A stretch of 64,000 bases of DNA, from the NCBI GenBank assembly GCA_964658305.1, contig OZ210885.1, positions 23,436,001 to 23,500,000 of the forward strand, written 5' to 3'. This stretch comes from Leptogorgia sarmentosa (lineage: Eukaryota). The notes under the pieces are model-generated. The model was not told the DNA's origin. It did not search any database and worked only from the letters and a program-made list of their open reading frames with translations. A program made the position numbers and the translations under genes. Shown here one piece after another: positions 5,880-34,112 of this stretch (the first letter of the stretch is position 1; each line of letters begins with the position of its first letter).

Positions 5880-8110
5880 AATGAGTCTGTCGGTAGTAAA
5901 AACAGTTGAAGGTGGTCTCCTTGGACCAATCTGCAGCATTTAGAATGTCCTGAATGGATACCCATATCTCATAGCAGTCGACGTTCAGGCACTTCTTGTG
6001 GAGTGGGGCTTGAAGATATTAGTGTCCACTCCAGCCTCTTGGAGGACGTCATAGAAGCAGATGAGACAGGTGTGAAGGGTTTCTGCATTGATCAGAACAA
6101 GGACTGACTGTCACGGTCTTTCAGCCGGCGAATTTGTGTTCGTCTGAGGTATTCCTTTAAGCATAACGCAGGACAGAGCTTGGGCGTGCCTTGAAGTGCT
6201 GGAAAGAAAAAGACAACTTCCTTGCCCGGACCTCTAGTTTTTGTATCTGCGTGACGTAGTGACGCAGATATATTGCTATTGTGTTGTAACTGTAAATGTA
6301 ACTGTAACCGTGCTTGCAGCCAATCAGAGCTTCGTGCTGTTAGCTTGTACCCAATCAGAGCTTCGTGCTGTTAGCTTGTACCCAATCAGAGCTTCGTGCT
6401 GTTAGCTTGTACCCAATCAGAGCAGAGCTTTTCGCATGTCGATTCTGAATTCTGATGTCCCGCCATTTGCAAATACTCTGAACTTCGAAGCATGCTTGGT
6501 AAATCGTTTAAAATATTGTACTTTTTTCTCATTTCTATCCTACTTTTGTCGCCATTTTATACGGATACCTATGTTGATCTGGTAAGTGTAAACAAGACAG
6601 AATTACAGCAGGTTTTACGGGTTGTTTGGATATCAAAAATAGGATAGAAATGAGACACTGCGTGCCGCAGATTTATACGCAGATACGCAAAAATATCAGG
6701 ATGCAAATCATACATTGGCATTGCTTTTAAAGATATTAAAGAGGTTTGCTATGGAATTTAGATCATCAAAGCAGAAATATGACATGTATTACCTTAAACA
6801 CACACAGCGAAATGAGCGAATATTATACACGTTATGATTGAAAGAGGTTTATGTCTTGACAAAATTGCTCGTATATTTTTCCCTACGATACTTTAGCGTG
6901 TCGGCACTGACACAGTGGCACATTTGTACATGTTTGGACTGCACGCGTTGTCATTGTGATCACGGAATATCTATTATATTTTGACGCTTCGCCATACAGA
7001 ATGGTTGAAACATTCAATACCAGGAAAATAGATTTTGTAGCTTGTAATGAAACGTGTTTGTTAAGCGCGAGACAAAACAAACGAAATCATATATAGTTTC
7101 AAGTATTCTGTTTTGCACTTATGCGCATACCGATCATACACTTGAGCGTCTAGGCAAATGCTGCATGAACGGATAGAATATAGTGCATATAAATATATTA
7201 TTATAATATGGTTGTGAAAAGAGTAAATTTGGTTTTTTGAAAGCCACATTTTTCACAAACAATCGCAAAGCGCTGTCTATATTTTAAGGACGCAATAGCA
7301 TAAAATGCGATATCATATTTCGTCAAGTTTAAATTCATTATGCAATTTGATATGATCGCTCGAATTCCAGAATGCGAGATAGTCATGAAAGCTTATATCA
7401 AGTATTGAATACGTCTCACGTCTTAACCATACACAACCTCATGTCTTAAAAGAAATAAGTATTTGCGCTATTCGCCTATTCCCTAGCAGTAAGTCATTTC
7501 ATACAAGATCGCGTATTAGGGACAGGTGAGATGCGTGTATGGAAAAGCTGAAAACAAATAAGACTTGATCATCGCTGGTAACCAAGCTACATAGGCGCAG
7601 ATACATGTACACTTGTGTACCTATTTTTGTTAAACCTGGGATCTTAAACTCAACCCCTTCTGGTAAGGATCTCATTAATGTCAGATCTATTGCACGAAGA
7701 TCCGACTGGCGTTTAGCACTTGTCAGGGCAAGAAGCATAGCACATTTCCTAGATAATTGTTTAATATCAAGGGAGCTATTGTCGTGTAAATTCTCAAACA
7801 ATTGGGTAACCTTGGCAACATCCCAAGTCTGAGAGTACCGAGGCTTAGAGGGTCTTTTGTTAAACACTCCTTTCATAAATCTACAGATTAGCTTATGTTG
7901 ATGAACTGGTACACCTTCTGCATGGGGTACTGTAGAGCTGATAGCAGATCTATAGGTGTTAATAGTAGCATATTGCTTACCCTGGTCAAAAAAACTGAGG
8001 ACATCCTTCACAGATGGTCGAAAGGAATCAAATTGCTGTTTGACACACCAGCCATCCCAGTTGGCCCAACATGAGTACAGTACAACTTGTACTGTTGTAC
8101 TGAGCTCTTC
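5880..8110 (-). pseudogene. DIRS tyrosine recombinase split by the HINE insertion
   Basis: ORF 7499..8011 gives YRSAISS...FMKGVFNKRP...WDV...LLALTSAKRQSDL...PGLTK. It resumes TRG... at 6240 and includes AGVDTNIFKPHSTRSA (HxxR box). Confidence 0.85.
6241..7628 (+). mobile_element. Non-autonomous Helentron-associated element (HINE/DINE-1-like)
   Basis: Inserted in a T-run (tagTTTTT|gttaaa). It has a 5' subTIR GTATCTGCG (6243-6251) with a nearby IR (6263-6271), a (TGTAAC)-like microsatellite and a 31-bp tandem repeat x3 (6320-6423). The 3' end has subTIR CGCAGATAC (7596-7604), hairpin GTACAC-tt-GTGTAC (7607-7620) and terminal Ts. Confidence 0.8.
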
Positions 8111-8111
8111 T

Positions 8112-9143
8112 TTAAGGTCTCTGTGCAGAGAGCAGAAAGTCTGTAGTGTTCTCTGATATTCCTTCTGATGAATAATAACACCTGAGACTCTCCACCCTGC
8201 CAGTACTAATGAACTGTTTAGGACTAGCGGGTGCCTGTTGCCTTTGTAGGTCTTTTAGCAGGTCCAGGTGATATGAAAGGAGGATTGGGTTGCACACTAG
8301 CAGGCTTAGGAGGGGCAGGTACCACGGCTGAGCAGGCCAGATTGGGCATATTAGAAGTAGTGATGCCCCCTTGTTGCATATTTTCTTTAGACATTTACTG
8401 ATGATGTTCATAGGGGGGGGGGGCGCATAAACATTCTCACCTCTCCAGGGTTGAACAAGGGCATCGTACTGTTGTGCGTCTGGGTCTGGAAGGTAACTGT
8501 AAAACCAATCTATCTGAGCAATGTTCCTGTTGGCAAAAAGATCTATCGTAAATGGAGCAAAAGTTAGATTTAGGGTCCGAAACAGCCTTATATCCTTGAA
8601 AACCATTGCTGCTGATGTGAGGCCAAAGATTCTCAGGCCCATTCTCCTCATGTGAGCGGTAAGGGTTTCAAGAGCTTGATGAAAACCCTTGGTGCTGATG
8701 TGAGGCCAAATGGAAGGCACCTGAATTGGAATGTGGTTCCCCGATGCTGGAAGCATAGGAACCTCCGGTGTGGCTGCAAAATGGGGACCGCGAAATACAC
8801 ATCTCTCAGGTCTATTTTGCACAAAAAATCTTGGGGCTGCGGGAGATCCCCTGCAACTTTCAGGTCCTTCATCTTGAAGTGTTGATGTACAATGAAATTG
8901 TTCAAGGGTGACAGGTTTATCACTGGATGCTGTCCCCCCCCCCTTCTTTTCTACTAAAAAGAGATTGCTGCAAAAACGTGTCCTGTGTGGACGAACCTTT
9001 TGTATGGCTTGTTGTTCTAACAAGCTGGCAATCACGTCCTCTATTAAGGACAACTCAGTGGCACTTAGACGAGGGGCAGTTGGTAACTTGTGTCGAGTGG
9101 GAGTCCCTGTGAACTCTAGCATGTAACCCTTGACAGCGTTCAA
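8112..9143 (-). pseudogene. DIRS RT (partial) and DNA-methyltransferase-like domain, deleted and frameshifted
   Basis: RT motifs: FCSNLFLVEKKGGG, KIDLRDVYFAVP, LPFGLTSAPRVF. MT-like motifs: IDLFAN...YAPPP...WPAQPWY. The YxDD/RNaseH region is largely deleted. Confidence 0.85.
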
Positions 9144-10699
9144 GGTTCAACGAGGTTAGGAGCTCCCAATTTCTCAGAAAATGTTTGAGCCTCCCTGCCC
9201 TTGGGACATCTAAATGAGGGGAGAGAAATAAATGGAAGTAGAGGGTGATTTACCTTTGTTGAGACTGAAAGTAGTTCTTTTGGTCTTGTGGGTGAAAGTT
9301 TTGCCTCCACCTTTCCCTCCAGGTGTGGCTTCCCCTGAGGGGGGCCCCTCCGAAAATACTGGTTGTCCTCCTATTCCTCTTCTGGACATTCTGATATTTA
9401 GAGTGGTTGGAAAGTGTCTGTTTGCCCTGCAAGAGAACTAACCAACTATCCAGTTCAGGCACACCAAAGCTGGCACGCTCGGTTTTGGAAAGTGTTCGAC
9501 CACACAAAGAGTGATCTTTGTCTTCCATACAAGATCGGAAATAATATACAATGTGTATAAAAAAAATTCGAATCCAACTTTGGTGTGTAATAACGCAGAA
9601 TATATTTGACAAATACGGTTGGTTTGTATATATTTCTTTAGTACGTTTATTTAGCTTTCAAATGACATGACAATCTTGTATGCATCCATTTGGTTGGAAA
9701 ATGAAGGAGTATAGGTTTGAGGAAAAAAGTTCATGAACATCACAATTTTCTGCCGATGGGAATTGCGCATTGTTCCTTCGATGGGTGATCCAATAAGCCT
9801 TTGAAATACTGATCATCGATAAAATGCAATTTTAAACGCAAGCTTCTTGACTTGAAGGCATTGGAGCTTAAATTTGCATTTCCTTTTGTTGCACCTCTCG
9901 CTTTGAATTCCCACCGGCGGAAATATTTGATTTCGAGGAACCATTTTTCACAGACAACTACTCGGTCAGTTTTGGTCGTACAGATACAAGAACGATATAA
10001 TTGGAAACCTGATAGACCATTCTTCATTTCCATATACAATTATTTCGGTTACTTTAGTATTTCATAAACAGCAGCCTGTCAAAGTTGGATTCAAATTTTT
10101 TTGATACACACTGTATAGAGCAATTCCTGAAGATCTTTATCAATGTTCCACATGCAGTATTTACTGTTCATATTCCCGGGATGTCATCCACAACTGACAC
10201 CTTTGAGGAGTGTCTCTTTGCTTCTTGTTGTGCCGCCAAAAGTGCAGCAGCAAACAGGTCATTGATCTGATCAGCACTTTTGGCGAATTTACGTTTCAGT
10301 TCAGAAGGAGGACCTTGAGCCCCTAGGCTCAAGACACTAGCCTGATAGGATCGCTTACGATCTTTGTGTTTGTTTGAGGTTGGCTGTGAAAAGCCGTTCA
10401 TTGAGAAACGCTCCACTTCCAAGCCGGCTTGCTCATCAACGGATGGTTGCTTTTCGCCTTCTGACGAGTCCGGTGGGGAGTCAGGTGGAACATCATTATC
10501 TACAGAGCCTGTAGGCTCGGAATGTTGATCATCTTACATAGGAAATCAAAGATTTGTCAGGCAAACTTTAAACACAACTACACTATGTAGGTTGCATGGC
10601 CTTATGAGACTCAGATTTCCATATATGGTCAAGATGACCATATTTAAGTCGCTAGTTTTGCACCTTTATAATAATTCAATTATTATTTAAGCTTTAAAC

Positions 10700-11977: not shown

Positions 11978-12449
11978 GCTTTAAACACTCAGTAGTTTCC
12001 TATATTTTATGGCCAAGACCAATTAGTGAATTCTGAGTGCAACATGTTATAGAATGAATCTTGCATAGTCTTTATGCCAAATTTCACAGTACTCTAAAAT
12101 GTCATTGTAACTGAAAAGGTGCTCACAGTTATCCACAATTTGTTGGACATGGAAAATGTTAAACTCTGTTTGAGAACATTCTGTTTCCCATCAATTTCAC
12201 TGGAAACCACTGGACGCTACTGGTTAGTATTTAAATCTTTCCTGGTATTAACATGGATTAATTTCATTTGTAATTTGTTATCACCGTTCTGAGTGACATT
12301 TCAAGTAAAACCATAACTACTGTTACAAAATGTATACCAGGTTTTCGACAAAGATTCGAAAAGACCCCAACAAACCCAGAAGGGTGATACCCTTATCTAC
12401 CCCTTAATAAAGATATAAATGTAAAGGCACACATAGGCATGGCGAACTA

Positions 12450-13754
12450 AGCCGAAGTTGTTGCTGGGAAAGCACACACAAACCGTTTTAAGTCATTCAA
12501 CTCTTGCCATTCGGACGTAGATTCACCAGTAGTAGGCGTTGCCAACCTTGGCAAGCTTCAGGTAATGGAGAGCAGTATGACGCCGATTCCATCCCACATG
12601 ATCCATAATCTCTGATAGATTAGACCCAGTTAATGCCAAAGTGATTGCACAACCTGAACGAAACCCATGTAAGGTCTCCCCATCATCATCCTTCATCTCC
12701 GTAAGATAATGCTTTAACCTGGCCTCCGCTGCGGAAGATGTCAACGGGGAATTCTTAACTCCACCCTGAGGGGTTGTCGGGCGAAACAAGTAGCCTGTGG
12801 TTAAGTCAATCTGCATCGCATTTGATACTGCGACATAATGCTCAATAGCCGCAACCGGACAAATAGTGAGGTTGGGGTTTCGCCGGATACCAAACACATT
12901 TTGATCGCCATCTCTGAGGGTCTTCCCCCAAACATGATTGAAAAGTAATCCATCGTCATTAGGGAACCGCAAGATCTCGGGCACTTTAACCTGACCCATA
13001 TCACCGGGGCAATCCCCACTGAAAAAGACGGCCTTAAAATAAGCCTAATCCCGAGCAATCAAAACCGCTGTGAAGAGGAGAGGGTAGGCCCTTCTGCCAG
13101 CCGACTTAAATGCAGTGCCAACCAGACCAACTTATCAATGAGAAAAGGTGTGGCTTGTTTTGGAGTAACGCGAGCTTGCAGCTGCTCCGCCGTGACCAAA
13201 CGCAAATAATCGTGAACTACTGTAGCCGCGGCCGGGTTGCCCAAACCCAAGCGCTTATCCCATTCTCCATCACATCCCAGAGCCAAAAAAATAGCACGTA
13301 ACTTCCCGATGTACGAGTCAACCGTCTTAAAAGAGAAGCGCATAGGACACACACATGCACAAACACCCTGTTGGCCCAGAAACAAGCAATCATTCTTGTG
13401 AACTTGAGTTTTCCCATGCTGGTCTTTAAACACCAAAAACCGTGTCACATCCCGTGGCGTCGCCGTCATCAATCCAGGGCGGCCGGGCAAAGCGGACAAA
13501 AAACATTCCAACTCCTTTCGCAATGATTCCTTCTGGCACACATAGCTAGTAGCCTGAGCCGACGTACCCAGCTGATCCAGATGAGTATCAATTGCCGACA
13601 AATCCACGGGAGGGGAAACGCCCGGATGTAATGAAACCGTCCGTTGTCGCTGGTAGCCGCAACGTTGGCAAAAATAGAAATCAAAATCATTCGCATAACC
13701 ACAACTCGGACACCTGTCGGACGCTACAAACAGCTTGGCCACAGGCACACAGGG
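12450..13754 (-). pseudogene. Tyrosine recombinase with N-terminal double-CxxC zinc ribbon (element A)
   Basis: CPSCGYAND...FCQRCG; SYIGKLRAIF; ETLHGFRSGCAITL...HVGW...ALHY. There is a stop/frameshift near 13050. Confidence 0.9.
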
Positions 13755-13846
13755 CTAAATAAAACAAGGGCAATAACCGTATGAAATCACACCATAATCA
13801 GAATTATATTGACCACTCAACTTTACAAACGGCAGGCATGTTCACA

Positions 13847-15950
13847 TCACCCCGCCGTGAAGTCTAAGGCAAAAACCCACAAATCCCCTGAGAGTCCTGG
13901 ATGTGGCACCCAACCTTGCGAACTCGGTACCCGTAGTGCAGACTGATCGCCCCTCCAGGCAACCCGTAGCGATAGAGTGGCATGTTCCTGAAGCAACGGC
14001 CACCAATATTTTCTGGGATATACATCCAATGTAACCAAAGTAGACGATCTGCGACATTGCTTCAAAAAACGTGATAAAGCGCCTACCATTACCAAAGGTG
14101 GAAAGACATATGGATGGGACAAAATTGGATCCTGTCGAGACAAATCCTGGGCAAAAACATTGACCGCGGCGGAATTCGGTGACAACCATGGGGTAAAATG
14201 CGGTAACAGATGGCCTTGCAAATCCCACATCACATTTGAATCAAGAGCCATCAAGGCACATGTGTGGCCCGTCACACCACCAAAGCGTTGTTGAACCAGA
14301 TTCCACATCTCCGCATCGAGACAACAATCTGAGGCTGACAGGCGACGAGATGGCGCATCCGCTGGATTGTCGTGACTAGAAACATGACTGATGAGACAAA
14401 TCCTGGGCAAAAACATTGATCCCGGCGGAATTCGGTGACAACCATGGGGTAAAATGCGGTAACAGATGGCCTTGCAAATCCCACATCACATTTGAATCAA
14501 GAGCCATCAAGTCACACGTGTGGCCCGTCACACCACCAAAGCGTTGTTGAACCAGATTCCACATCTCCGCATCGAGACAACAATCTGAGGCTGACAGGCG
14601 ACGAGATGGCGCATCCGCTGGATTGTCGTGACTAGAAACATGACTGATGCAGAGATGCACATTCAACGTAATGGTAGCAAAAAACAATCGCTTCACCGCC
14701 CAATTAAGCCGAGGGCTGCGGCCCCCGGCGGCATGCCAGGCAGCCACTACCGCCTGATTATCCACCAGAGCATCGACCCACATATTCTGGACTGTATTGG
14801 GGAAGGAAAATAAGACTCGCTCGAGAGCGATCGCCTCCTTAACCGAGACATCCCATTCTACTTCGTCTGGCGCCCAATAATCAGACACCTGGAGAGGCAT
14901 CGGCGAGGTCATCGAACCACCCCAACCAAACGCGGATGCATCTGATGCAATTGTGACATAAATATGTCGCTCGTCCCTCCAAGGTACCGAATGACACCAC
15001 ATATCGACAGACACCCAATGAGTAAGCTCCTCCCACAACGGACCCCGTAAAAAAATTTTCGGTTTTCCGGTCCGATGGTACAGAGATATAGCTGTATTCA
15101 TTTCACGTGTAAATAACAGAGTGGCCGGAACCACCAGTGAGAAAGAAACACATTTCCCGACCAACTGTTGCAAAAGCTTTACCGTAACGTGGCGACCCTG
15201 CAAAATCTCCGTCGCCAAGGCCATGAGTTGACCAAAAACCCCAGATATGGCACGACCTTGCGAGGCACCAACACCGATTTTGACAAGTTGAGAAAATAAC
15301 CCAGGTGAACCAATGTATACATCACTAAGAAGAGAGTGGATTTTGCCGCCAAAAACGACTGTCCGTTGTGTCGATCATCAATCTATAATGAACACGGTAC
15401 GCGAATTGAACGGAAGTAATTCGAGACCACCAGCCCTGTAGTATGGTAGACATAAGGAGACGCTTTCCATCCAAACGGGAGGGAATTATATAGGAAAACC
15501 CATCCTCCCCATTGGATCCCAAAATATTGACGCGTCGCCGAATCAAGCAAGAGATGATCATACCCCGACTTATCATCGAGGACCGTCTGGTAAAAATCAC
15601 GTTCCACGTACCGAGGAAGATCACTCAATGAGTTGAGACGAAACGGATTATATTGAATCCACAATTTCAAAAAACGTAGGATTATTGGAAAAATAAGACA
15701 CGGGAGGTCGATCAGAATCATATGCTCGACCTTTGAATACGCCTTTATAATGCTGCCATTGTGGACAAATCGACACTTTATCCCGAATCCAACTCAGCAC
15801 TCGAGCCTGCTGTGGAGTCGGAGAATGTCCCACCAAAGTCTCCCAATAAGCAGCATGTGCATGCAGTTCCCCAGCACGAAATGATGACGGGTCCCGGAAT
15901 ACTAAGTCCGCAGGGTCGCCCAACGATTGCCCATTCATAATAAAACACAT
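13847..15950 (-). pseudogene. RT + RNase H + methyltransferase-like pol (element A), frameshifted, with a 256-bp internal duplication
   Basis: RT: LDDKSGYDH, LPFGWKASP. RNase H: ASDAS, KEAIAL, LVDNQ, NPADAPSR. MT-like: VNVFAQD...YVFPP...PRKYWWP. Confidence 0.9.
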
Positions 15951-16194
15951 GGAACCCCCAAAGAGCCAGTGGAAGGATGACAGTTCTGACCTGGCCTAGC
16001 CAGGGGAGTTAGTTTGGAGACTCTGTTTCAAAACTGACAAACCCCCAAAAACCCTTAAATATGAGAACTGAAACCCCCAAAACAAGACACACTGTAATAT
16101 AGTTGTAAACACTCCTATTCTCTTTTGAAGAATTGACAAAGTAATACACAATGCATAGCACTAACCCAACAACACAATATCATCATTCCTACAA

Positions 16195-18250
16195 CTATTC
16201 ATGCAATTCAGTTATGGAGGTCGAGGCTGGCGCAGGAGTTCCAGAATTCTGACGTGCTTGAGTATCTTGTTTTTTCTTAAAACACGTAGCCTGGAAATGC
16301 CCCGGAATTCCACAGTAGAAGCATCGGCGATCCTGCAGATTGCCCTGACCCCCACAACCTCGCTTGATTGGTCGCCGAGAATCCTGCTCAGCCTTGCGCG
16401 AATATCTCTTATCCACTTTACTGACGCGGTCCAACACGCGTTCTTGATCCTTATCGCACAATAGTGCCAACAACAAGTCACGGAAATACTGAGATGACTC
16501 GCCAATCTTATCCCGCATAGTATCATAGGTCGCCAGATAGTAAGCACTCTTGTCGTGCTTTAAGTCCATAGCCGTATCCTTCAAAGATTCCAACAATTCT
16601 AATGCGTCATATTTGTCGGTCGTGCGGTTATGCTCACAATCTTCTTCTGAAGAGCGTCGACAGAAGGCTTCGACAACATCTCTATATTCTTCTTCAGAAC
16701 AGCCAACTCCTTCTTAAGGTTCTATAAAAAGGACAACAGTATAACTGCCACATCCGCCTTTTAAGGAACCCTAAGGAACTGAGGCAACATTGAACATGCA
16801 ATTTAATAGACGTAACTGCAATCCGAACTGCCTACATGTAACTCTGCCATGTACATGTCTAAAATACCCCTGTGAACGGTAACAGACAATCAATGAACCC
16901 ATCCATGCCGAGGCTGATGTACAAACACTGCCCCCCAGGAACGAACGGCCGATGAGCACCAACCATGCACGCACGGAATATGCCACAACAGGGAAATCAC
17001 AACATAACCTAACTGTCTGTGGCCGACAGGACAACCCCTACAGGTGGTCGTACTGTAACCCCACCGAACCGGTGCAACTAGCAGATAACAGACCCATCGA
17101 CCGCAATGGTGCCCGACCACGCCCTTCAGCGCGAAAATTTAACCTTCCATCTGGCCGTTCAAGACATGAACCATTCATGCGGATGGCTCCCCTGAACTGG
17201 CCATCAGTTACTACTGCCTACTAGTAGTTAATGGACCATCCCCACAGGTGGCCCCGCACAAAACTCCCCATCAGGGAACTGCAAATAGCCATCTAGCCGT
17301 AAACCAACAGAAGCCCGCAGGCAGCTGGCGACACGCTGACACCGGCTGGACTTCATATAACTTAACTGTCCTGCTGGCAGTCAACAGAACCACACATACA
17401 GGGGTTCACTACCAATACTTCAAGCCACCCAATTTTACTATCCCACTGGCAGTAAAATACGTAACGATAAGACACAGCGATGGCTAAACCTGAACGCCGA
17501 GAAGATAACTGTCCCACGAACAGTTAACCGAACAATCTCCACTGGGAAATGCCGATCCCATACTTGAAACTAGCACATAACCGCCCTAGCGAATCATGCC
17601 AGACAACCATATTCAGGACAATATCATCGCCTTACAAACGCAAACCGAGTGCGTACCCCCAAGAGTATAATGTATCATAATCGGCAAAAATCAGCCCCCG
17701 CGTCACGGCAAACGAACATACCTATATAAAAGAATAGGCAAACAAACTATCCTAGCTGAAATCCTAATGCAGAAAATGTGCCGCCTGTAGCATGCATGTA
17801 ATAACCGTGCAACCTAATACAAGAGTAACCGACTAAACCGATAGCCGTCAGCAAAATGTTAAGAATAAGTCTACCAACAGCACGCGACAAGTAGAAAGCG
17901 CTGATCGTAATAAACATGTGTGAGCGACTCCCATAGAACACTAAATATGCAAACTGTTGTTTTCGCCAAACCCGACAGTACCATCAAGTCAGCAAATAGA
18001 TCAATATAATAATCATCCCGAGAAATCAACTCATAGGGAAATCATCGATACACAAAAAAAAAACCAACAAGAAAGATATAGAATACCTCCAACTCTTCAT
18101 TCGGATTGTTCGCCACTGCTTGAAGAACAGGGGCTGCCGGAGGCGGTTGTGTTGCTGTTGTGGATCTATTTCAGGGCCTAGGGGCACCTGAACAGCATCA
18201 TGATCCCGTTCCTGAATAAATTGTACATCACCTTCAACCTCTTCAGCCAT
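16195..18250 (-). pseudogene. Spliced gag with CCHC zinc knuckle (element A); exon 1 18250-18087, intron 18086-16722, exon 2 16721-16195
   Basis: Zinc knuckle CFYCGIPGHFQATC; donor TTGGAG|GTATTC; acceptor ttgtcctttttatAG|AAC. Each exon carries one frameshift. Confidence 0.7.
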
Positions 18251-20040
18251 AGAAAATTCGTGCCTTGTTTCAATCACAAAATCGTCCTGTTACTACAACT
18301 CACTTTGTTGCTGACTTGAAGATACTGAGCTAAAACCGAGTTTAACAGCCTTTTATACCTATGGTCCTCCGTCCCTATCCTAATCTTTTATTCACAATTC
18401 CTTATTAGGTATTATTTATCACTAAATCACTTTTGCATATAATTACGAGTGTTAAGAATAGTATGCTGGTACATATATGCAGCTGCACTTTTCTAAAACT
18501 GTTTTTAATTATGCTTCAAAGAGATCTGGTTGATAGAAAGACAGGATGGAAAACACAAAAGTGGACATGCTCCCAAACTGCTCCTTGCAGGCAGAATGAT
18601 AACTATAACTGCTGAGTATTTGTTTGTTTTTAAAGTTTTCAAAATCGTATATTTTTATTGCACTGTAGCTAAATTAAAAAAAAACAATTTCTGCATTTTG
18701 GATACTTCTGACTTCAATATTTTTTGTTGTCATAGTTTGCACACTGTGTAGCTCATGGAGAAGGTGAGAAAATAGAACGTGAGAAAATATTTGATACTGT
18801 GTATGGGAACTGCTACGATGATGTGGGCAGGTAAAATTGTACTGAATAATGTGGTCAGTTATCACTTATAAGAAAAACTTTAAACTATTTAGCTGAAGCA
18901 AGTGAACAATTGTTGAAATATACATTAATGCTCAAGATTTTTTCTTGTTGCAGTGGAAGAAACACGGCAGTATGCAAAATGTGCAAAAACGATGACGGCG
19001 ATGACTGGCTCGGTTGCGACAAATGTGGGCAATTTTTTCACGCCAGTTGCAGGGTTGTTTTTTCGACAGCCCTCTCTCAAACCTTTTATTGTTAGGACTG
19101 TTGTGTAAATTATGCCTGTACATACTGTATGTACCTATTCAATGTTTAAAATAGTTATGTAAATGTGGAGTGAAAAAATAATTTGTGTTATTTGTGAAGT
19201 TTAATAACTTTAGACACCCTGTTGTTAGTAAAGTGACTTATAGTTAGATACTATGTTTCCTCTATTCAGCCCTTTTGGGGCTTATTTATTTTTGCCAGCT
19301 TTCAATTGGGGTTCATTGGAAGGGGGATAAATATAGGGTGGGCCCTTCCTGAATTTCCCGCAGATTTGTTAACGTAAATATGCCAATTGACACAACACAT
19401 TCATCTATATCAATTTGTATTAAAGTATGCCCCATCCAATGTGGTCAGTATACGGTAATGCCTTTTCCTCTGATAAACGTTTTTAACAACGACCTTAACG
19501 AGAGGTTACAGTCCCTTTTGCGCATGTGCTAGCTTTGTTTACGTCTGGAGACTCCACCGGATGTGTCAGTATTATTCTTGGTCTAGTCTCACTCACTTCC
19601 GGCAATAATAAAGGCTCGTTTGTTTTAATTGAGGGGTGAGCATATTATTTAAATCGGTGTAATCAGTGCATGCCTCTTGTAACATGTGATGTTCTTGTTT
19701 CAAATAAGGGGTCGTCATGCACACACATCTCACAAATTCCTCATAGAAAGGACAAGGTAATACTTATGAACCCATTATACATGTATCAGATGGACTATTC
19801 ATAGAAAGACCAAATATTATTTATGAAATGCCCCAATATTGTCATATTGTAATAACAATACTGTCTGGCTTTTTGTGAACAGTAGTTCAATAAATATTAC
19901 AATTTTGACTGATTAATCCAATAATGCTGTTTAGGGGAGTCAGGGAGTGGACAGATAATTTATTTAAAGCAGTGAAGTGTGCTGTTGGGGGGGAGGTTAT
20001 TTCCTGCCACACTATGGGTAGTTACCATGCAGCAGTCATA

Positions 20041-21032
20041 CAGGCGCGGATCCAGACCGTGGCGAACGGTGCTCGCGCCACGGTCAGATTTTTCCCACCC
20101 TAGATTTTCCGGGGTTCACCTTTTTCTGATATTAGATTAAAGAATAATAATTTGAAATAAATCCTTCAAAATCAAGGAAATCTGCATCTATTGCAGCCTA
20201 TTTGAATAACATTTTCCCTGATAGTTCACATTATTTTATGTGGTGTCATATTTCGCGTCAAATGCAATGAAAACGCCGAAATATTATGTCTCTTCAATAG
20301 CATAATCATTCAGTTAACACTGAACTATAAAAACAGCCGAAACCGTACCGAACTGTGCCGAATATGTTCGGTAAACAGTCAAAAATTTGAAGCTGCCGCC
20401 TGCGATCACAGCCACAAATTTTGCCACGGTCAGTGTGCAAAAAGTTTCCATTTGTTACTAAACATAGTAACTTTCTGCCACAGTGCAGAGGTGCAAACCA
20501 ATCACAGGGCTAGCTGTGGTCATGTGCACCACAGTGAGTGTATTTTTATTGCACAATTCAAATGATCAACGATGAGTTTGGGTACTTGTCGGATTTGACG
20601 GGTAGAATTTCATAACAAACCTATACTTATCGAATGCTTGTTAGAATGGAGGCTTTTGAAAAGGTCGATGTTCTCAAGAAGCTCGTTGAAATCTTTCAAA
20701 AATTGAACCAGGGCGAAGATATTTCAGGGCAGTTATCACTCTTGAGGCAACAATGTGATAAATTTATCACTGAAGGAAAAGCTCTGCCGTATAAAATCTA
20801 CAGGCGACATTGTGCTGTGAGTGTGCGAATTTTCCAAAAGTCAACTGTCCCCAAGAGTCAAATTGAAAGATCTGGGCCTAATATCCATGTTAAGTAAGAA
20901 TTATATGATAGAATTCGATGCTCTGAACACAGGAAATGTATTCAAATATTTAGCGGGGGTGCCCCCGGACCCCCCTGGTTATGCGAGTTTTTGACCCTGC
21001 CACGGTCAGATTTAATGCTGGATCCGCGCCTG
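20041..21032. mobile_element. Non-autonomous hAT-type element
   Basis: Perfect 15-bp TIR CAGGCGCGGATCCAG / CTGGATCCGCGCCTG, resembling the autonomous hAT TIR CAGGGGCGGATCCAG. The flanks share only GTCATA (imperfect TSD). Confidence 0.8.
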
Positions 21033-21132
21033 GTCATACCCATAGTAGGACAAGTAAAGCAAGGTGATATATGTCATTTTAGAACACATGCCATATATGA
21101 GTAATGAAAACACAATTTTTATACAGTATATT

Positions 21133-21645
21133 TAACAGTTATTCTGCGAACTCGAGTCGTATATAATCGTATTATAACAGTTTTACAGCTTGATAAATAC
21201 ACGCCAAAAAGCACTGAAAAAACAACAGTTACGGAATTAAAATAGTCAACGTTTCGATTAAACCATAGCTAGTTTTAAATTTCAGCAGTTTTCATCTGTA
21301 TTTTTCTGCATTTGAAAGTACAACACAAATTCTTCCGTTGTAAAATGTCAACAAACAGCAACAAGCGATCCAACTCAGTCAAGCAATAAATATTACAGCG
21401 TCGAGTCCGGTTGTCCAGATTCAAAACTGCACAATAAACATTTACAACTAAACTTCTTGAATTTTATTCTTTTAATCGGTCGCAAAGACGTTTTTAACTG
21501 TTGAAAACTTCAATTTCGGCTCCGCTCTTCCAGCCATTTTGTTTACATTTCTGTACTAGCAGGATATGAGCTAATATCCTGCTAGTAGAGAACCAATCAG
21601 ATTGCAGAATAGCTCATATCCAGTGCTTGTGTATATAATAATAGT
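21133..21645. mobile_element. Short non-coding repeat element (possibly non-autonomous Crypton-like) into whose end YR element B inserted
   Basis: It begins TAACAGTTATT and, with element B removed, ends TAATAGTTATT (short direct repeats). There is an internal perfect 14-bp hairpin at 21554-21587. The family call is a guess. Confidence 0.3.
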
Positions 21646-22132
21646 AAAATATCCAAACTGGCCATTCTTCCACGGATCATTGATTAGCATTGGGAAAAGG
21701 GAAGATCCATTGTTTCCAATGAATCATGAATGAATTCCGTAGAAGAAAACCAGCGAGGACAGGACGCAGACGGGTGGGGGGGAGGGCGCATTTTACTGCA
21801 ACGTACGAGTACCCCACCCCAACCATTCCCCGGCCCCCATCCCCCTCCCGCTCCTGTATCCTGTTACTTTATCCTAGCACTCCAATATCGTCGTGGCGAT
21901 CAGCACAAATTATGGCATATAGCACGGGAGACGCGGCATTTTATACACGGCAAATCATTATTTATTCATCAACTGCATTACTTATTCGTATTTTAATGCT
22001 CAATAATGATCCCTGAGCGTTTTGTCCAATTTGAATAGTAAAATATCCAAACTGGCCATTCTTCCACGGATCATTGATTAGCATTGGGAAAAGGGAAGAT
22101 CCATTGTTTCCAATGAATCATGAATGAATTCC
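21640..22132. repeat. 3' split-direct-repeat block B2 / A2 / B1 of element B
   Basis: The 99-bp B repeat appears identical in its two copies. The ~172-bp A repeat is nearly identical to 29023-29194. Confidence 0.95.
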
Positions 22133-22187
22133 TTCGCAAAAAACCGCTACTGCCTACTCCTGACCCCAATCCCACCAACCCTCCCCT

Positions 22188-22272
22188 TTCCCCATACTCA
22201 ACATCCTTTCCCCATACTCAACATCCTTTGCCCATACTCAACATCCTTTCCCCATACTCAACATCCTTTCCC
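22188..22272. repeat. 20-bp tandem repeat (TCCCATACTCAACATCCTTT) x~4 in the 3' UTR of element B
   Basis: Directly visible. Confidence 0.9.
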
Positions 22273-22347
22273 CCCCCCCACCTATTGACCAAGGTTCCCT
22301 TCCATACCGGAAGGAGTAAAGGGACACAGAGGACATCACTCGATGGT

Positions 22348-23690
22348 CTACGACGACAATGGCGGGAATGCGAGGACGAAATCCTTAACAGCATTGAGGT
22401 CCTGGTACAATTTAGTCAAATTTTCCGCTGATTGAGGACCATCCACTGCTGCTGCCATGAGAGCGGAAGTGCTGTCGTGTCGAAGCACCTGCTCCAGCTG
22501 CATATAATACCGCGCCGTATGGGCTCTTTCCCATCCAACATGGCCCATAATGTCCGCCAATGCGGAACCAGATAGGGCCAGGGTAACAGCGCATCCGGAG
22601 CGGAAACTGTGCGCCGTCTCACCTTCATCCAAGCCTGCGGCCGAAAGGTACGTCTTCAACCTGCCATTCATACCTTCTGACGATACGGATGTGTCGGCAA
22701 TTGTTCCTTGCACCGTTGTAGGACGAAACAAAAACCCGTGGGAGAGATCCACCTGCATGATACGTGAAGTCGAAATATATCGCTCAATCGCAGCTACAGG
22801 GCATATACGTGTATTAGAACATCGTCGAATACCAAAAAGATTGGAACCATCCCCGCGAAGCGTCTTACCCCATATGTGATTAAACAATAATCCATCATCA
22901 TTGGGGAAGCGGAGAATCTCATTGGTACGAACCTGAGCAAGATCACCCGGCCGATCACCCGAAAAGAAAAGGGTCTTCAAATAGGCTTGATCTCGGGTCA
23001 AAATGTACGTTTGCAAAGGGTCGTCCTGGCAACTCAGAATACGATGATCGATATGGTCGGATAACCGGGCTAGCTTGTCGACAAACAATGGGACCGCCTG
23101 TGGAGTCACACCTGCCGCTGCCTGCTCTTCTTTAACACACTTCAGGTAATTCTTTACCAATAGGGAAGCCACAGGATTACCTAAACCAAATCCACTTTCC
23201 CAGTCCCCCCCCATGATCATTATTCTTAAAAACAGTGCGTAACTTCCCCACGAGAGAATCGACAGTGCCGGCCACCAAACGAAGCAGGCATTCACAGGAA
23301 AAGGAACCTTTAAGGCCCCGATGCGGGCACAGCAGGGAGTGGACCTGGGTTTTTTCCAGTCTTGTCTTTCCACACAAGAAACCGAACGATATCCAAAGGG
23401 GTAGCTGACAGGAGATCCTTGGGCACGGGCAAAGAGCCCAAAAACTGAACCAAAAGATCAGCCACACGGGACGTCTGGCGATCATACGCAGACTCTTGGT
23501 TAAACAGCTGAGAAATTCGCGCATCAACCGATGGGAGGTCAACCGGCAGCACCTGGCCCTGTTGCGGAATCATAACAGACCGACGAACATAGCCACACTG
23601 TTGACAAAACCGAAAACCGTGGTCGTTCGGATATGAGCAATTTGGACATGCCACAGCCGGAAGCCATATACGAGGGAGCACCCAAAGAGA
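22348..23690 (-). pseudogene. Tyrosine recombinase with N-terminal zinc ribbon (element B); two frameshifts at homopolymers
   Basis: CPNCSYPND...FCQQCG; FFSGDRPGDL (Arg box); TAHSFRSGCA...HVGW...ARYY. Confidence 0.92.
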
Positions 23691-23817
23691 CTATGGTATA
23701 AAGTAAAACGCAGAACGCCATGAGTTAACATACATTTAATGAACATAAGCCTACACAATGAGATTGTGACTGGGTCGTAGACCAAAATATTACAACTCAA
23801 TCACGCAGTCCTAGGAA

Positions 23818-25794
23818 TCAGCCATACACAAGGCGAAATGCCCACAAATCCCAGGGAATTGGTCCGTATTTGACCACGCCAGCTTTACTCGGTCGAAGCA
23901 GGACACCGGTTTCTCCTTGACGGGCGATGCACATAGTATGAACACTGTCAGCGCACAAAATGGGCCACCAATACTTCCGAGGGTATCGATCCGACATGTG
24001 ACGAGACAGCGCATCCGCGGGATTCTGAGTAGTCGGAATATACTTCAAAGAAAGACTGAGATTAAGCCGCACCGTCACCCAAAAGAGCTCTTTCAATGCA
24101 CTCAACATATCCGGGGATCGAGTATACTGACGCTGCCAACAATCAAGAAGTATATGCGAATCTACGTGGACATCAACACGATGATTACGTACCTCATCAG
24201 CCAAGGCTAAAAGTGTATGTGAAAGCGCAACGGACTCCTTAACATGAATAGGCTGTGACAGCGTAGGTTCAGTCCAGGAATCGCGAACTTCCTTAACGAC
24301 ACAACCACGGTCACCCAACAATGTGCCACCCCAGCCAGAACCTGAGGCATCCGATGCAACTGAAATAGTAAGATGCCATTCCTCACGCCAGGTCATATGT
24401 TCTGTCCACTTGTCCAGGAACCGCCAATACAAAATTTCCTCACGCAGTGGACCCTGGATCTTGATAAGCTGGCGAGATCGCATAGCCTTGGTCATGGCAA
24501 TATTCATTGCCCGAGTAAATAATTTTGCGGCAGGAACAACCAAACTGAACGACACGCATTTTCCAATCAGTTTCTGGAGGGAGATAATCGTCACATACTT
24601 CCGGGATAGAATACTTTCCCGAAGAATAGAAAACTTTTGCACTTTATCCGACGGCAAAAGGAAAGCTAACAGCGTAGAGTCACAAGTTCGACCCAAAAAG
24701 ACTAGTCGTTGCACGGGAACAATAATAGATTTTGATAAGTTCAAAAAGTAACCCAATGACGTTAGGACAGAAATTGCAATAAATACAGCCTGGGAAGCAG
24801 AGTCAAAACTACTGGGGACATCGGCCTGCACCAACGCAGTAGGAACAGGCAAACCGTCCTGACGAGGGAACCTCCGTTGGCCGAGATGACGGTCATCAAT
24901 GTACTGGGAGCAGGGTATATGCTGGTGACGCAACTCTTGCGTGGCGACCATGCCCAACGTCTGATATACATAGGGCGAAATTTTCCAACCAAATGGGAGG
25001 ACATTGTTGACAAACCACCAACCTCCCCATTGGAAACCCATGTAGAGACGACTCTTGTCATCCATGAAGACATGATCATATCCGGACTTATCATCCAACT
25101 TCGACTGGTAATGATCCCGGTCAACGTAGCGAGTCAGATCAATCACAGAATCAAGACTGAAAGGCATGTCTTTCATCCACGAATTAAGATAACGCTGATC
25201 TTGGCGCAGTCGAGGTTTCTGTGGTTCAACCGTCACAGGCATGACTAAAAGAGGTGGTGGACATTCCCCCACTCGACCAATTACATCAACCGCCCCGACC
25301 TCAATGCGTTCACAAATAGTGCGTGAAATAAAATCTGTGAACGGTTTGCACGAGACATTGTTCTGAAATATCCTGGGCACCGGAGTATCAGATTGATATG
25401 TAACACCACCAAAATCTCCACGAAAATGAGCCCAGTAGTTTCGAACAGAAACCCGGTTCGTTATCCAACTCATAATTTCGGCGTTGTTGGGTAACGCTGC
25501 AGACAATCGGCCCCACACCTCGGGGTGGTTATGTATTTCATCCGCACGAAATGTGTTAGGGTCACGGACAAGTAACTCACAGGACTTCGCGGGTGAACCA
25601 AGAGACTCATCAGACAGAGGAACTGATGAGTACCCGGCAACTGCTGCCCCAGAACTGGTCGCTGGAAGATGTTTCCATCGAATCTCGCGGGTCTTAAAAC
25701 GCTCAACGGCTGCCAGTGGGGAAAACTCAATTGTAGCGGCAGCTTCCCACTCGGGCACAACGAACGTTTGAAAACGATAACGTTTAACGGGCGG
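23818..25794 (-). CDS. RT + RNase H pol of element B (open frame; MT-like domain mostly deleted)
   Basis: Motifs LDDKSGYDH, LPFGWKISP, YIDD, ASDASG, KES, VDS, NPADALSR. The start given here is the proposed splice acceptor. Confidence 0.9.
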   Translation of the reverse strand, partial: PPVKRYRFQTFVVPEWEAAATIEFSPLAAVERFKTREIRWKHLPATSSGAAVAGYSSVPLSDESLGSPAKSCELLVRDPNTFRADEIHNHPEVWGRLSAALPNNAEIMSWITNRVSVRNYWAHFRGDFGGVTYQSDTPVPRIFQNNVSCKPFTDFISRTICERIEVGAVDVIGRVGECPPPLLVMPVTVEPQKPRLRQDQRYLNSWMKDMPFSLDSVIDLTRYVDRDHYQSKLDDKSGYDHVFMDDKSRLYMGFQWGGWWFVNNVLPFGWKISPYVYQTLGMVATQELRHQHIPCSQYIDDRHLGQRRFPRQDGLPVPTALVQADVPSSFDSASQAVFIAISVLTSLGYFLNLSKSIIVPVQRLVFLGRTCDSTLLAFLLPSDKVQKFSILRESILSRKYVTIISLQKLIGKCVSFSLVVPAAKLFTRAMNIAMTKAMRSRQLIKIQGPLREEILYWRFLDKWTEHMTWREEWHLTISVASDASGSGWGGTLLGDRGCVVKEVRDSWTEPTLSQPIHVKESVALSHTLLALADEVRNHRVDVHVDSHILLDCWQRQYTRSPDMLSALKELFWVTVRLNLSLSLKYIPTTQNPADALSRHMSDRYPRKYWWPILCADSVHTMCIARQGETGVLLRPSKAGVVKYGPIPWDLWAFRLVYG

Positions 25795-26085
25795 CTGAGA
25801 TAGAAAAGAACGGAAGGGGACAAAATAAATCATAACGGCATCTTCCGAATGACCAGAAGGGGGCAACAGTCCCGGCCCAACTGCGAGAGTCGAACACAAA
25901 GAGCTTCAGATAGCCCTGGGAAAGTTATCCCCCGCCAGTCAACGGTAAGAATAGTAACAAACCAGAAAATAGACACAGATAACCCAAATGCAAACGTTTA
26001 TTATATATCCGATTTATGATTCATCCTTTACTAACAACATTATGAACTAACACAACACGAACGTATCACAGCAGTAACCTAGATA

Positions 26086-28978
26086 TCACTTTCTCTGTGG
26101 ACAGTTACGCGCAAAATGGCCTAGACGCCGGCACTGAAAGCAGCGTACTCTCATCTGAGGAGGCTGAGGACAAGGGACCGGGGGATAGGGATTCAGACGG
26201 AGTGGGGGCGGAAGCATAGCACGTGGGGCATTCCTTGGCGCTTTATAGACTTTCACCATCGTCTTAGCCACTTCCTTCTCCACGTCGTCACCCAAGACTT
26301 GGATAACGAAATCGGCCATTTGTGGCGTCATGGGAAGCCGTTTGCAGTTGGCGAGCACAGCGGCATATTTTCGTACATCTTTGTGGGCGGAGCAACGCGC
26401 AACATCTTCCAGATTCTCTAATGCACCCAAAAGGGCATAGGGATCGAACACCGCAATGGGACGCGACGCCAACTGTCTCACCAACAATACCGCCTGGTCA
26501 ACTGACGATACTTGAGCAATATTCTGGAGTTGTTCAAGGCGTTGTTGCATTTCCCGCACGCGATTCTATAACAACATACGACGTGTTAACGCATGTATCT
26601 CATACCCACCGCTACGGTAGGTTAAGTTAGTGGGCAAGTCAAATTCCGCGGGCACGCGTGCCTAGTCAACACAACTCTAACATGACTAGAAACACCTCTG
26701 TCAATACCGTACCCCACTTAAATTAGCAATCTCCCATGCTATAGTTACACATGCTCATATACCAACGAAGTTGGGATTTACCAGAAGCACATGTTTTAAT
26801 AGACCAATTTCACGATATCAGCGAATTCAAGTTCACTCGGTACGCTGGCACAGTCGGAAGCAAGCTAACATTGCCAGAAGCACATGTCTCAATATCACAT
26901 TTAACGATATTAGCAAGTTCAAGTTCACTCCGTCCTCGTGCACAGTCCGACGCAAACTAGCAGTGCCCGACGCACATCTCAAGATCAATTTGACGCTATT
27001 AGCGAATTCAAGTTCGATCGGCCTCGTCACGGTCTGAAGCAATCTAACATTGCCAGAACCACATCTCAAGATCAATTTGACGCTATTAGCCAATTCAAGT
27101 TCAATCGGCCTCGTCACAGTCTGAAGCAATCTAGCATTGCCAGAACGACATCTCAATATCAATTTAACGATATTAGCAAATTCAAGTTCAATCGGCCTCG
27201 TCACGGTCTGAAGCAATCGAACAGTGCCAGAAGCACATCTCAATATGAATTGTACGATATTAGCCAATTCAAGTTCAATCGGTCTCGTCACAGTCTGAAG
27301 CAATCTAACATTGCCAGAACCACATCTCAATATCAATTTAACGATATTAGCAAATTCAAGTTCAATCGGCCTCGTCACGGTCTAAAGCAATCGAACAGTG
27401 CCAGAAGCACGTCTCAATATGAATTTGACGATATTAGCCAATTCAAGTTCAATCGGCCTCGTCACGGTCTGAAGCAATCGAACAGTGCCAGAAGCACATC
27501 TCAATATGAATTTTACGATATTAGCCAATTCAAGTTCAATCGGCCTCGTCACGGTCTGAAGCAATCTAACATTGCCAGAACCACATCTCAATATCAATTG
27601 AACGATATCAGCAAATTCAAGTTCAATCGGCCTCGTCACGGTCTGAAGCAACCGAACAGTGCCAGAAGCACATCTCAATATGAATTTGACGATATTAGCC
27701 AATTCAAGTTCAATCGGCCTCGTCACGGCTTGAAGCAATCTAACATTGCCAGAAGCACCTCTCAATATCAATTTAGCTATATTAGCAAATTCAAGTTCCA
27801 TCGGTACACGTGCCCGGTCTGAAGCAATCTAACATTGCCAGAAGCACATCTCAATATCAATTAAACGATATCAGCCAATTCAAGTTCAATCGGCCTCGTG
27901 CACGGTCTGAAGCAATCGAACATTGCCAGAAGCACATCCCTGAATATACCAATTCAACGATATTAGCGACTTCAAGGTCACTCGGTCCTTGTGCACGGTC
28001 TGAAGCAATCTAACATTGCCAGGCGCACATCTCTCAATATACCAATTTAACGATATTAGCGACTTCAAGGTCACTCGCTCCTCGTGCACGGTCTGAAGCA
28101 ATCTAACATTGCCAGAAGCACATCTCTCAATATACCAATTTAACGATATTAGCGACTTCAAGGTCACTCGGTCCTCGTGCACGGTCTGAAGCAATCGAAC
28201 ATTGCCAGAAGCACATCTCTCAATATACCAATTTACTGATATTAGCGACTTCAAGGTCACTCGGTCCTCGTGCACGGTCTGAAGCAATCGAACATTGCCA
28301 GAAGCACATCTCAATATACCAATTTCCCGATATTAGCGACTTCAAGGTCACTCGGTCCTTGTGCACGGTCTGAAGCAATCGAACATTGCCAGAAGCACAT
28401 GTCTCAATATCAATTTAACGATATGAGCAAATTCACGTTCACTCGGTCCTCATGCACGGTCTGAAACAATCTACCCTTGTCAGAACGCTAATACTGCCCG
28501 GTAAACGCGAAGCTTGGGGAAGCCATTGCTTGGGCGATACACAATTCCCCCGCGAACACCAATTCATACAATAAAGATACGAACTAAGTGAAAACCGCTC
28601 ATGCAACCCATGAGGAGATAAAACCACCCAACTAATATAGCTGCTCAGGCAAACCTACGAAGTTATAGCGCTAGATAGGCGAGAAACCCCACCGAACTGA
28701 AAACCCCAACCAAACAGACGAAACTTGAAACACTGAGACCACACATGAAGAACTTCCACAAACCACCTGGGCTGTGCTAGAAAACCCATCTAGCATGAAA
28801 TAGACAACATAATTACCTCCAAATTCGGTGCCTGTGGCTGGTCCTCTTGAGGAGGATTCGGATTAACGACACCAGGTGGACCCGGCAAGTTGTGAAATAG
28901 CACAGGCTCCTGCCGTGGTATTGGATTAGGTTGATCTTCTTCGTGTCGTTGCGGTGGGCGAACAGGTCGTTGGGCCAT
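26086..28978 (-). CDS. Spliced gag with CCHC knuckle (element B); exon 1 28978-28817, intron 28816-26566, exon 2 26565-26086
   Basis: Exon 1 MAQRP...APNLE (54 codons) ends GAG|GTAATT. The acceptor gttgttatAG|AAT joins in frame to NRVREMQQ...CFQCRRLGHFARNC. Confidence 0.8.
26775..28485. repeat. Tandem array of ~19 units (87-bp then 93-bp variants) inside the gag intron of element B
   Basis: The anchor CACGGTCTGAAGCAATC (or a close variant) recurs at 27028/27115 (period 87) and at 27901/27994/28087 (period 93). Units degrade at both edges. Confidence 0.95.
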
Positions 28979-29729
28979 CTGTTCGGTTTCGTTATCTTCT
29001 TTTTGGGTTTCTTTATATTCTTCTTTATCCAGCACTCCAATACCGTCGTGGCGATCAGCACAAATTATGGCATATAGCACGGGAGACGCGGCATTTTATA
29101 CACGGCAAATCATTATTTATTCATCAACTGCATTACTTATTCGTATTTTAATGCTCAATAATGATCCCTGAGCGTTTTGTCCAATTTGAATAGTTATTAA
29201 TGTTTTCCCTTTGGGGTGCATGGCCTATGGCATTTAGAAATGATACTGGGCTTTGTAATTTTGACAGATGCCACTTAACTTGAGGGTAGGCACATAGGGA
29301 TATGTGTGATAGGCACTTAGATCTTAGAGATGTGTAGCTAGGACTGCATCATAGACTGCGGCCCAGCGTGATGCAAGCTATGTTGCAGCCTAAAGAAGCA
29401 TCAGATTATTCCATTTTCATGTTGCCTTTTATCATGCCTTGTTTGCCACAACTCTCTATTATGCCAAATAGTCTCCCCACATTGAAGATTTTGGCAATTT
29501 GAGTCTGGGTTGCCTACCCTTCCTCCAGGGAGAAAGGAGTAATATGCCTTTCTTGATCTATTAAAAAGGTGTACCTGGTTCGCTTTGTTCACATTCAAGA
29601 TACTGAAGAAGACAGTGAGCAATCCGACAATCATGATAGTGCTCCACTGCTTTCCACCCACATGAAACGCAAATCATCAGATATCGATTTGAGCTGTCAA
29701 CTGACTGGACTTTCAAAATTATAAATCAG

Positions 29730-33480: not shown

Positions 33481-34085
33481 ATTATTTATTATTTATCTAA
33501 GTACTCTCCAATTTGTTAGTAAGTATATAACTTGCTTCACACAGTTCACAGTTTGTTGAATTAATACTTGACTAAATTCTGAACTTTTCTTTCATATTTG
33601 TTTCAAGATTCCTTCGAATGAGTCCTGATCGTTTTGAGAATTTACTGACTTGTGGGTCCCTATATTGTAAAACAACGTTGCAGAAGTCGAGAAACAATCA
33701 CACCAGCTGAACGGCTTACAATAACTTTAAGATATTTAGCATCTGGAGACTCACAGCAGTCGCAATCGTTTAATTTTCGTGTCGGAAGAACAACACTGTG
33801 CAACATAATACGTGGTAACCACCCAGGACACAGGAAGATTGGAAGAAGATAGCAAATGAGTTCTTCACGAAATGGAACTTGTCGAGAAGTAGAACAGACT
33901 GTTTAATATTACACGAAGTTCATGTAACATTCTTATTATTATTATTACTCTGTGGTACAAGACAGTGGGCTCGGAAACGTTCCCTGTACGTTTTAGGGTT
34001 AAAAATTGTAATCGAGTGATTGTTTAGTTTCACCAAATAAAATCAGTACAAAACATTGTCTTTCTCGACCTTTCTCGACATTATT

Positions 34086-34103
34086 TGGTGCCGTGACCAG
34101 GAT
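34086..34103 (+). promoter_or_regulatory. Primer-binding site, tRNA-His type
   Basis: TGGTGCCGTGACCAGGAT lies 5 nt after the 5' LTR. Confidence 0.8.
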
Positions 34104-34112
34104 TATTCGAAT

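Follow-up and report, generated by a model that had tools for sequence, protein, structure and literature searches.

A stretch of 64,000 nucleotides from Leptogorgia sarmentosa (GenBank assembly GCA_964658305.1, contig OZ210885.1, positions 23,436,001 to 23,500,000; hereafter the window, numbered from 1) contains two related retrotransposons on its minus strand: element A, the subject of this study, which extends from approximately 18360 to 12450, and element B (21640..29194). The gene order in A is gag, then pol, encoding reverse transcriptase (RT) plus RNase H followed by a conserved tail, and then a gene joining a zinc ribbon and an ALOG domain to a tyrosine recombinase (YR); B has the same genes together with split direct repeats. 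We consider it probable that this family makes Gag, Pol, and the recombinase by splicing one leader to three in-frame acceptors, and the leader-to-gag splice, taken on its own, appears very likely. The original prediction for this DNA had argued for selection on splicing from A and B; that selection acts on the splice sites is supported well beyond two copies, by a YR acceptor retained in 13 of 14 elements, by leader-gag gene models in four anthozoans, and by a pol acceptor in B, in the metagenome locus L009, and in the protein model P0210. What can be read directly from the sequence comprises the domains, the lesions of A, the donor, and, for gag and YR, the acceptors together with their position and phase in relatives.

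We propose that a single transcript from a TATA box would be either left whole or spliced from one weak donor. The unspliced RNA would be the template for reverse transcription and would yield only a short leader peptide; splicing would join one short coding leader exon to one of three alternative phase 0 acceptors, giving leader-Gag, leader-Pol, or leader-YR mRNA. Joining of the leader to gag is supported by the gene models of others, and we infer its joining to the pol and YR acceptors. Weak donors (T at position +5 in both A and B) and the choice of acceptor may together set the ratio of Gag to Pol to YR.

Leader exon and gag acceptor

In element A, a TATAAAA box that probably acts as the promoter (18351..18357, minus strand) is followed by an initiator-like TCAGT at 18328 (minus strand), and the first ATG after these sites stands at 18250, at the start of a predicted coding leader exon of 164 nt (18087..18250, minus strand). 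The leader is rich in P, Q, E, A, D, and N, with VQF near its start and ELE at its end, and it abuts a predicted splice donor, GAG/GTATTC (18085..18086, minus strand). A predicted intron of 1,365 nt (16722..18086, minus strand) leads to the gag exon (16195..16721, minus strand; acceptor TAG at 16722-16724), which has a coiled-coil-like start and a CCHC knuckle. The coordinates previously given for the donor (TTGGAG/GTATTC at 18087/18086) and the gag acceptor (cctttttatAG/AAC, exon base 16721) were correct, as were the intron lengths of 1,365 nt in A and 2,251 nt in B. The LE/N junction reported for both elements is present in each, but the N is not kept in relatives; because the residue after the junction varies among them, the N shared by A and B carries no weight. 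The hallmarks of a GT-AG intron (a GT donor, a pyrimidine tract with YAG, and a frame kept in relatives) were found, with the frame broken in the leader of A. Before gag, the unspliced RNA carries 54 ATGs in B and 41 in A (the latter counted from 18400 to the gag acceptor).

A profile search returned 662 gag relatives, compared with 2 from a single-sequence search. Sorting of 269 gag-like proteins gave 177 with short extensions, 80 with hydrophobic extensions, and 12 scored as leader-like; one of the last, P0160, does not carry a real leader, and 11 remain. Every one of the 11 is a gene model at NCBI, the sources being Dendronephthya, Exaiptasia, Paramuricea, and Desmophyllum, with three of the Exaiptasia models each appearing under both a submitter and a RefSeq accession, whereas all 10 of the hydrophobic, F/L-rich extensions that were checked belong to unnamed ENA records; the leader is thus found next to gag in splice-aware models alone and never in plain open reading frame (ORF) calls. 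Among 33 representatives with hydrophobic extensions, Q stands near the gag junction in 22, against an expectation of 21%, within an interval that includes three exon residues. The eight distinct model leaders are 26 to 63 residues long, with a P/Q/E/A/D/N fraction of 0.65 to 0.78 (0.67 in the B leader); five end in LE, and in seven the last residue is E, K, or Q, as an exon ending in NAG would encode. One of the eight, from Actinostola, ends in GELE and is joined into pol. A leader profile run against 22 metagenome loci gave no convincing leader; it found B and, weakly, the last piece of the A leader (E 0.25). Locus L009 has a leader-like start that is interrupted by other DNA.

Recombinase acceptor

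The YR acceptor of A is a TAG at 13755..13757 (minus strand), 92 nt after the pol stop and 14 codons before the first zinc-ribbon cysteine. The site originally proposed, ttgttttatttAG/CCC with exon base 13754, was confirmed and starts a frame of 231 codons with no ATG before the zinc ribbon. Comparison was made across 14 elements, namely A, B, and the 12 of the 22 metagenome loci that reach the 5' end of YR, the other 10 being excluded; three YR starts were set by the position of the first cysteine, the BLAST placement being two codons off. At the homologous site, TAG after 14 to 18 pyrimidines in 20 is present in 13 of the 14; its distance to the first cysteine position is exactly 14 codons in 12 of them and 13 codons in L022. 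With copies at least 79% alike pooled, the acceptor is kept in six of seven lineages, the background frequency of YAG being 0.02 per site; the flanking intron DNA is approximately 45 to 60% alike between lineages. Where ORF-called YR proteins continue across the site, an F/L-rich stretch with Q at -15 is seen in six of six cases, and a CAG acceptor can encode Q; in a set of 140 cluster members, Q was present in eight of nine YR read-throughs, all from one family. Three NCBI models join at the same YR residue from three different donors.

These findings bear on the possibility that there is no functional splicing, the sites having arisen by chance in T-rich spacers and the gene models being artefacts of the predictors. 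The sense strand of the element is indeed T-rich, and the YR acceptor of A, taken by itself, ranks only 18th of 197 AG sites by pyrimidine content, so that the case for it is made by its position across relatives. Furthermore, the contigs examined are DNA-like, so the splice junctions are predicted from DNA and none was read in RNA. Chance is hard to reconcile, however, with position and phase fixed in six of seven lineages at such a background, with the alternation of TAG and CAG at the same place, or with leaders of similar composition in a stony coral as well as in two octocorals and an anemone pair, and we regard this explanation as very improbable.

Two internally deleted copies (L019:335-980 and L009:9018-9500) retain the YR acceptor directly after a shortened pol.

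Pol acceptor and gag-pol spacer

In B, the predicted pol acceptor is CAG/CCG at 25794, 75 codons before an F/V-x-D motif, and L009 has TAG/GTC at the same distance; Desmophyllum models enter pol at PPPKRV, 71 residues before the motif, and across B, L009, and P0233 the acceptor lies 71 to 75 codons ahead of it. In both B and L003, the predicted stem of a three-way junction is followed by approximately 55 nt, the acceptor site, and then, some 75 to 80 codons on, an RDP motif. The pol acceptor of A had been expected near 16020-16080, hidden by frameshifts; comparison of spacing with B and L003 indicates that the acceptor was lost, together with the pol N terminus, in a deletion of approximately 210 nt at 15942..15960 (minus strand). 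From the end of the hairpin to the RDP motif there are approximately 63 nt in A, compared with approximately 272 to 281 nt in L003 and B, and homology of A to pol restarts at 15941. AG sites at 16020-16091 were rejected as candidate acceptors, since they lie upstream of or inside the hairpin, whereas the site in B and L003 lies downstream of it. What is left of pol in A (RT, RNase H, and methylase-like tail) occupies 13847..15941 (minus strand) and has several frame breaks.

The long stem, predicted to close a two-hairpin three-way junction in the gag-pol spacer, lies at 15955..16060 (minus strand) in A (folding z -1.65), at 25845-25945 (minus strand) in B (z -3.59), and at L003:5090-5190 (z -4.98), and a role as a signal for packaging or for splice control is possible. 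A similar motif at L009:7780-7880 precedes gag and folds no better than shuffles; Rfam gave no matches in 12000-29500, the stem included.

Pol and YR might instead be made as fusions, through short introns near the ends of gag and pol, with leader-gag splicing alone being real. Models P0210, P0232, and P0233 do join gag to the pol acceptor, models P0007, P0010, P0019, and P0348 join pol to the YR acceptor, and methylase-ALOG fusions have been described in metazoans (PMC3537659); no leader-YR protein is present among 218 YR proteins (78 plus 140), which also counts against our scheme. Each of the four pol-YR models uses a different donor, however, and an in-frame GTR, which is a Val codon, is shared by at most three of nine readable pol ends, with none in L001; the absence of a widely shared in-frame donor and the variety of donors weaken the case for pol-YR fusion, and ordinary stops end both gag and pol. 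We therefore consider such fusions unlikely as the normal route and prefer a leader joined to each acceptor.

Start codons and evidence against the leader scheme

It is also conceivable that the acceptors are used and that each gene is nevertheless translated from its own ATG or a near-cognate codon, the first exon being an untranslated leader, as for foamy virus pol and env, or the sites serving trans-splicing or internal promoters. Trans-splicing is not known to occur in anthozoans. Several start codons would suit this reading and weigh against a coding leader: gag contains an ATG of its own, at codon 6 (B) or codon 15 (A), an ATG lies within the 14 codons before the zinc ribbon in 4 of the 14 elements, and Met stands at -10 in one large YR family, as in P0010 and P0348; 26 of 78 YR calls begin at -10, where the codon is not visible. 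In A, moreover, the leader is out of frame. Since the first ATG sits 164 nt from the donor, the frame of the NEELE that ends the leader contains no ATG, and the leader-like composition switches frame near 18160-18145, where the exon is broken. The original prediction had named an out-of-frame leader as evidence against itself; one is present in A, a single dead copy, but neither B nor the gene models show it. On the other side, phase 0 is kept at all three acceptors, leaders of a common composition start at the first AUG and are in frame in B and in 11 models, and 10 of the 14 YR exons have no ATG before the zinc ribbon. Independent starts are accordingly an improbable explanation in our judgment, and the shared coding leader remains our preferred one.

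Further observations detract from the leader scheme. At the YR acceptor, L009 is out by a small indel, and P0422 has L, not Q, at -15; at the expected pol acceptor, L003 has TGG, and the Actinostola leader-pol junction falls downstream of the conserved site. The ends of the model leaders were placed by alignment, not on DNA, and the models are themselves predictions. No intron-less retrocopy was found among the 12 loci with a YR 5' end.

Kinship of elements A and B

Element A had been described as a diverged sister of B that conserves the same layout independently. The two are indeed too diverged for general DNA matching, similarity being local (68% over 236 nt of RT and 69% over 179 nt of YR), and the interior of A matches that of B, but A lacks the split direct repeats, so that only part of the layout is shared. 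The claims of sisterhood and independence did not survive. In a YR tree (FastTree, midpoint-rooted, no outgroup; 97 of 102 rows, 5 having been dropped as too short), the deepest split separates A from B (support of 1.00 for the B side), and their YR proteins are 45% identical over 425 columns, which makes A a distant cousin of B; the nearest sampled YR proteins to A are 64 to 67% alike. The splice trait is found on both sides of this split, and the plan is best read as inherited by A and B from an ancestor that they share at the root of the clade sampled. Named relatives occur in Porites, Oculina, Desmophyllum, Actinostola, Exaiptasia, Nematostella, Dendronephthya, and Paramuricea, which makes an anthozoan host likely; there were none in prokaryote genomes or viral contigs. 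We give even chances to a broader proposal, in which a code of one leader and three acceptors, common to a whole clade of animal YR retrotransposons, would predate the divergence between stony corals, anemones, and octocorals, all proteins, including Gag, would come from spliced RNA and start with one and the same acidic proline-rich tag, full-length RNA would code for none of them, and splice decoding may extend more widely in the DIRS order, as the acceptor-like site ahead of RT in an unrelated DIRS fragment of the window hints. Element A, although dead, is informative as to how old the plan is.

The split direct repeats of B (minus strand) are A1 (29031-29194), B1 (22034-22145), A2 (21876-22039), and B2 (21640-21751); the 164-nt pair is 99% identical and the 112-nt pair 96%. 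The leader of B, 162 nt and in frame, lies at 28978-28817, and the predicted exon starts are at 26565 (gag), 25794 (pol), and 23690 (YR), all on the minus strand. B is also damaged, with approximately 270 nt of the pol tail absent relative to L001 and L004 (23818-24000) and a frame shift in YR (23180-23690, minus strand). Tandem arrays occupy the leader-gag interval in three relatives: B has 18.8 copies of an 87-nt unit (26805-28485), and shorter units were seen by eye in L009:6900-7620 and L003:4000-4200; A has none. Contigs of a B-family variant, at approximately 5 to 10 times the flank depth, appear to lack approximately 98 nt including the donor (28806-28905; loose end matched by eye), and in the same variant, the 42 nt before the leader ATG (28978-29021) are swapped for 10; this is possibly a non-autonomous derivative unable to splice. 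Over 28520-29500, no loose end at the B donor was among 16 of the 18 recorded.

Classification and comparison with known elements

Element A is a dead, end-truncated copy of an ALOG-YR retrotransposon. Its YR exon (12450..13754, minus strand) has the N-terminal zinc ribbon and ALOG domain that distinguish the class (PF04852, E 4.4e-21; zinc ribbon, E 1e-4; PF00589, E 1.1e-7), and its gag has a zinc knuckle (PF00098, E 0.0012). The RT match (PF00078) has an E of 0.0018 in A, where the gene is broken and the score falls below cut-offs, compared with 9.6e-10 in B, and the pol of A matches that of Actinostola at 51 to 56%. Approximately 200 conserved codons follow RNase H in the position of an inactive adenine methylase, with no Pfam match and an E of only 0.79 to a Dam-like neighbor; the motifs presumably resemble those of a methylase, which the tail may be. 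Because terminal direct repeats, which B possesses, are absent around A, it is named a truncated remnant and not a complete member of the ALOG-containing DIRS1-like retroposons. Split direct repeats of the PAT type (A1...B1-A2-B2) are likewise absent in A and present in B, neither element has an inverted pair at its ends of the strict DIRS1-like kind, and the conserved tail after RNase H, if it is a methylase, would set the elements apart from the Ngaro-like kind, in which the methylase region is absent.

The class itself was described by Iyer and Aravind in 2012 (PMC3537659), whose ALOG-containing DIRS1-like retroposons share with A and B a zinc-knuckle Gag, RT-RNase H, a methylase-like tail, and a zinc ribbon-ALOG-YR protein, as well as marine animal hosts, mostly dead copies, and direct repeats. 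A coding leader exon with acceptors is not part of the description in the main text of that paper, in which "splic," "intron," and "exon" do not occur. PAT-like elements, reported in Nematostella, resemble B in their split direct repeats and, putatively, in a methylase region after RNase H; A differs in lacking the repeats, and the ORFs here do not overlap, being separated by spacers that end in acceptors. The parts of that literature covered here give no expression mechanism (PMC3266345, PMC6681497, PMC4157794, and PMC7192593), and the portions covered of these four, PMC12477816, PMC5890265, and bioRxiv 2021.08.05.455354 hold no account of natural splicing in YR elements. Splice-based YR expression was not found in the literature searched, although the PMC3537659 supplement, Repbase notes, and reviews behind subscription may bear on the point; the element class is known, and the one-leader splicing scheme was not found in print.

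Foamy viruses make Gag from full-length RNA, whereas here even gag appears to require a splice. Their Pol, unfused to Gag, and their Env come from spliced subgenomic RNAs, with a suboptimal splice site setting the level of Pol, and the upstream exons of Env are non-coding (PMC7828637), whereas the shared exon is predicted here to supply the start codon. Alternative splicing also sets protein ratios, with unspliced RNA kept for copying, in the short gag RNA of Arabidopsis Ty1/Copia (PMC5580714) and the CERV of Caenorhabditis elegans Cer1 (PMC10309623), but there a single splice acts in a polyprotein gene or for an accessory protein, the enzyme is an integrase and not a YR, and there is no shared coding leader in what is described. 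For the LAP2alpha exons derived from a DIRS1-like gag, the authors concluded by inference that the captured sequence brought its own splice acceptor, an account that concerns exon capture by host genes and not expression of the element (PMC4495291).

How a YR retrotransposon obtains three proteins from one RNA is unexplained in the literature found, and a shared coding exon would answer this for the clade. If the scheme is true, the RNA that is copied would encode none of the element's proteins, which would set translation apart from packaging, and the tag carried jointly by Gag, Pol, and the recombinase could recruit the enzymes to particles with no need of a Gag-Pol fusion. The scheme would also account for peculiar gene models, and for ORFs that lack an ATG, in the annotation of corals.

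Condition of element A and other elements in the window

Besides the leader and the pol deletion, the frame of A is broken near 16617 in gag, in RT, at the site of a tandem duplication of 256 bp within pol (14132..14643; copies 98% alike), and near 13062 and 12548 in the YR exon. The duplication has approximately double contig depth and is real in the sample. Contigs from three runs of one sample are identical to A over 14620-18707 at flat depth, and therefore the lesions are real; over the same interval, these contigs show no close second copy of A and no intron-less joint.

An unrelated DIRS1-like fragment at 7499-9657 (minus strand) has a Dam-like match (E 0.009) and, between gag and RT, a 44-nt GT...AG stretch with a pyrimidine tract (9253-9210), directly before the RT start DVPRAGRL; this is a possible gag-pol intron or RT acceptor. 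Other elements in the window lie at 33899-39290 (plus strand), 39233-40063, 42922-46035, 53079-57343, and 57378-59366, and their kinds include a Bel/Pao long terminal repeat (LTR) element, Harbinger-type DDE pieces, a hAT transposase, an inverted-repeat element with YqaJ, OTU, and DDE genes, and a LINE.

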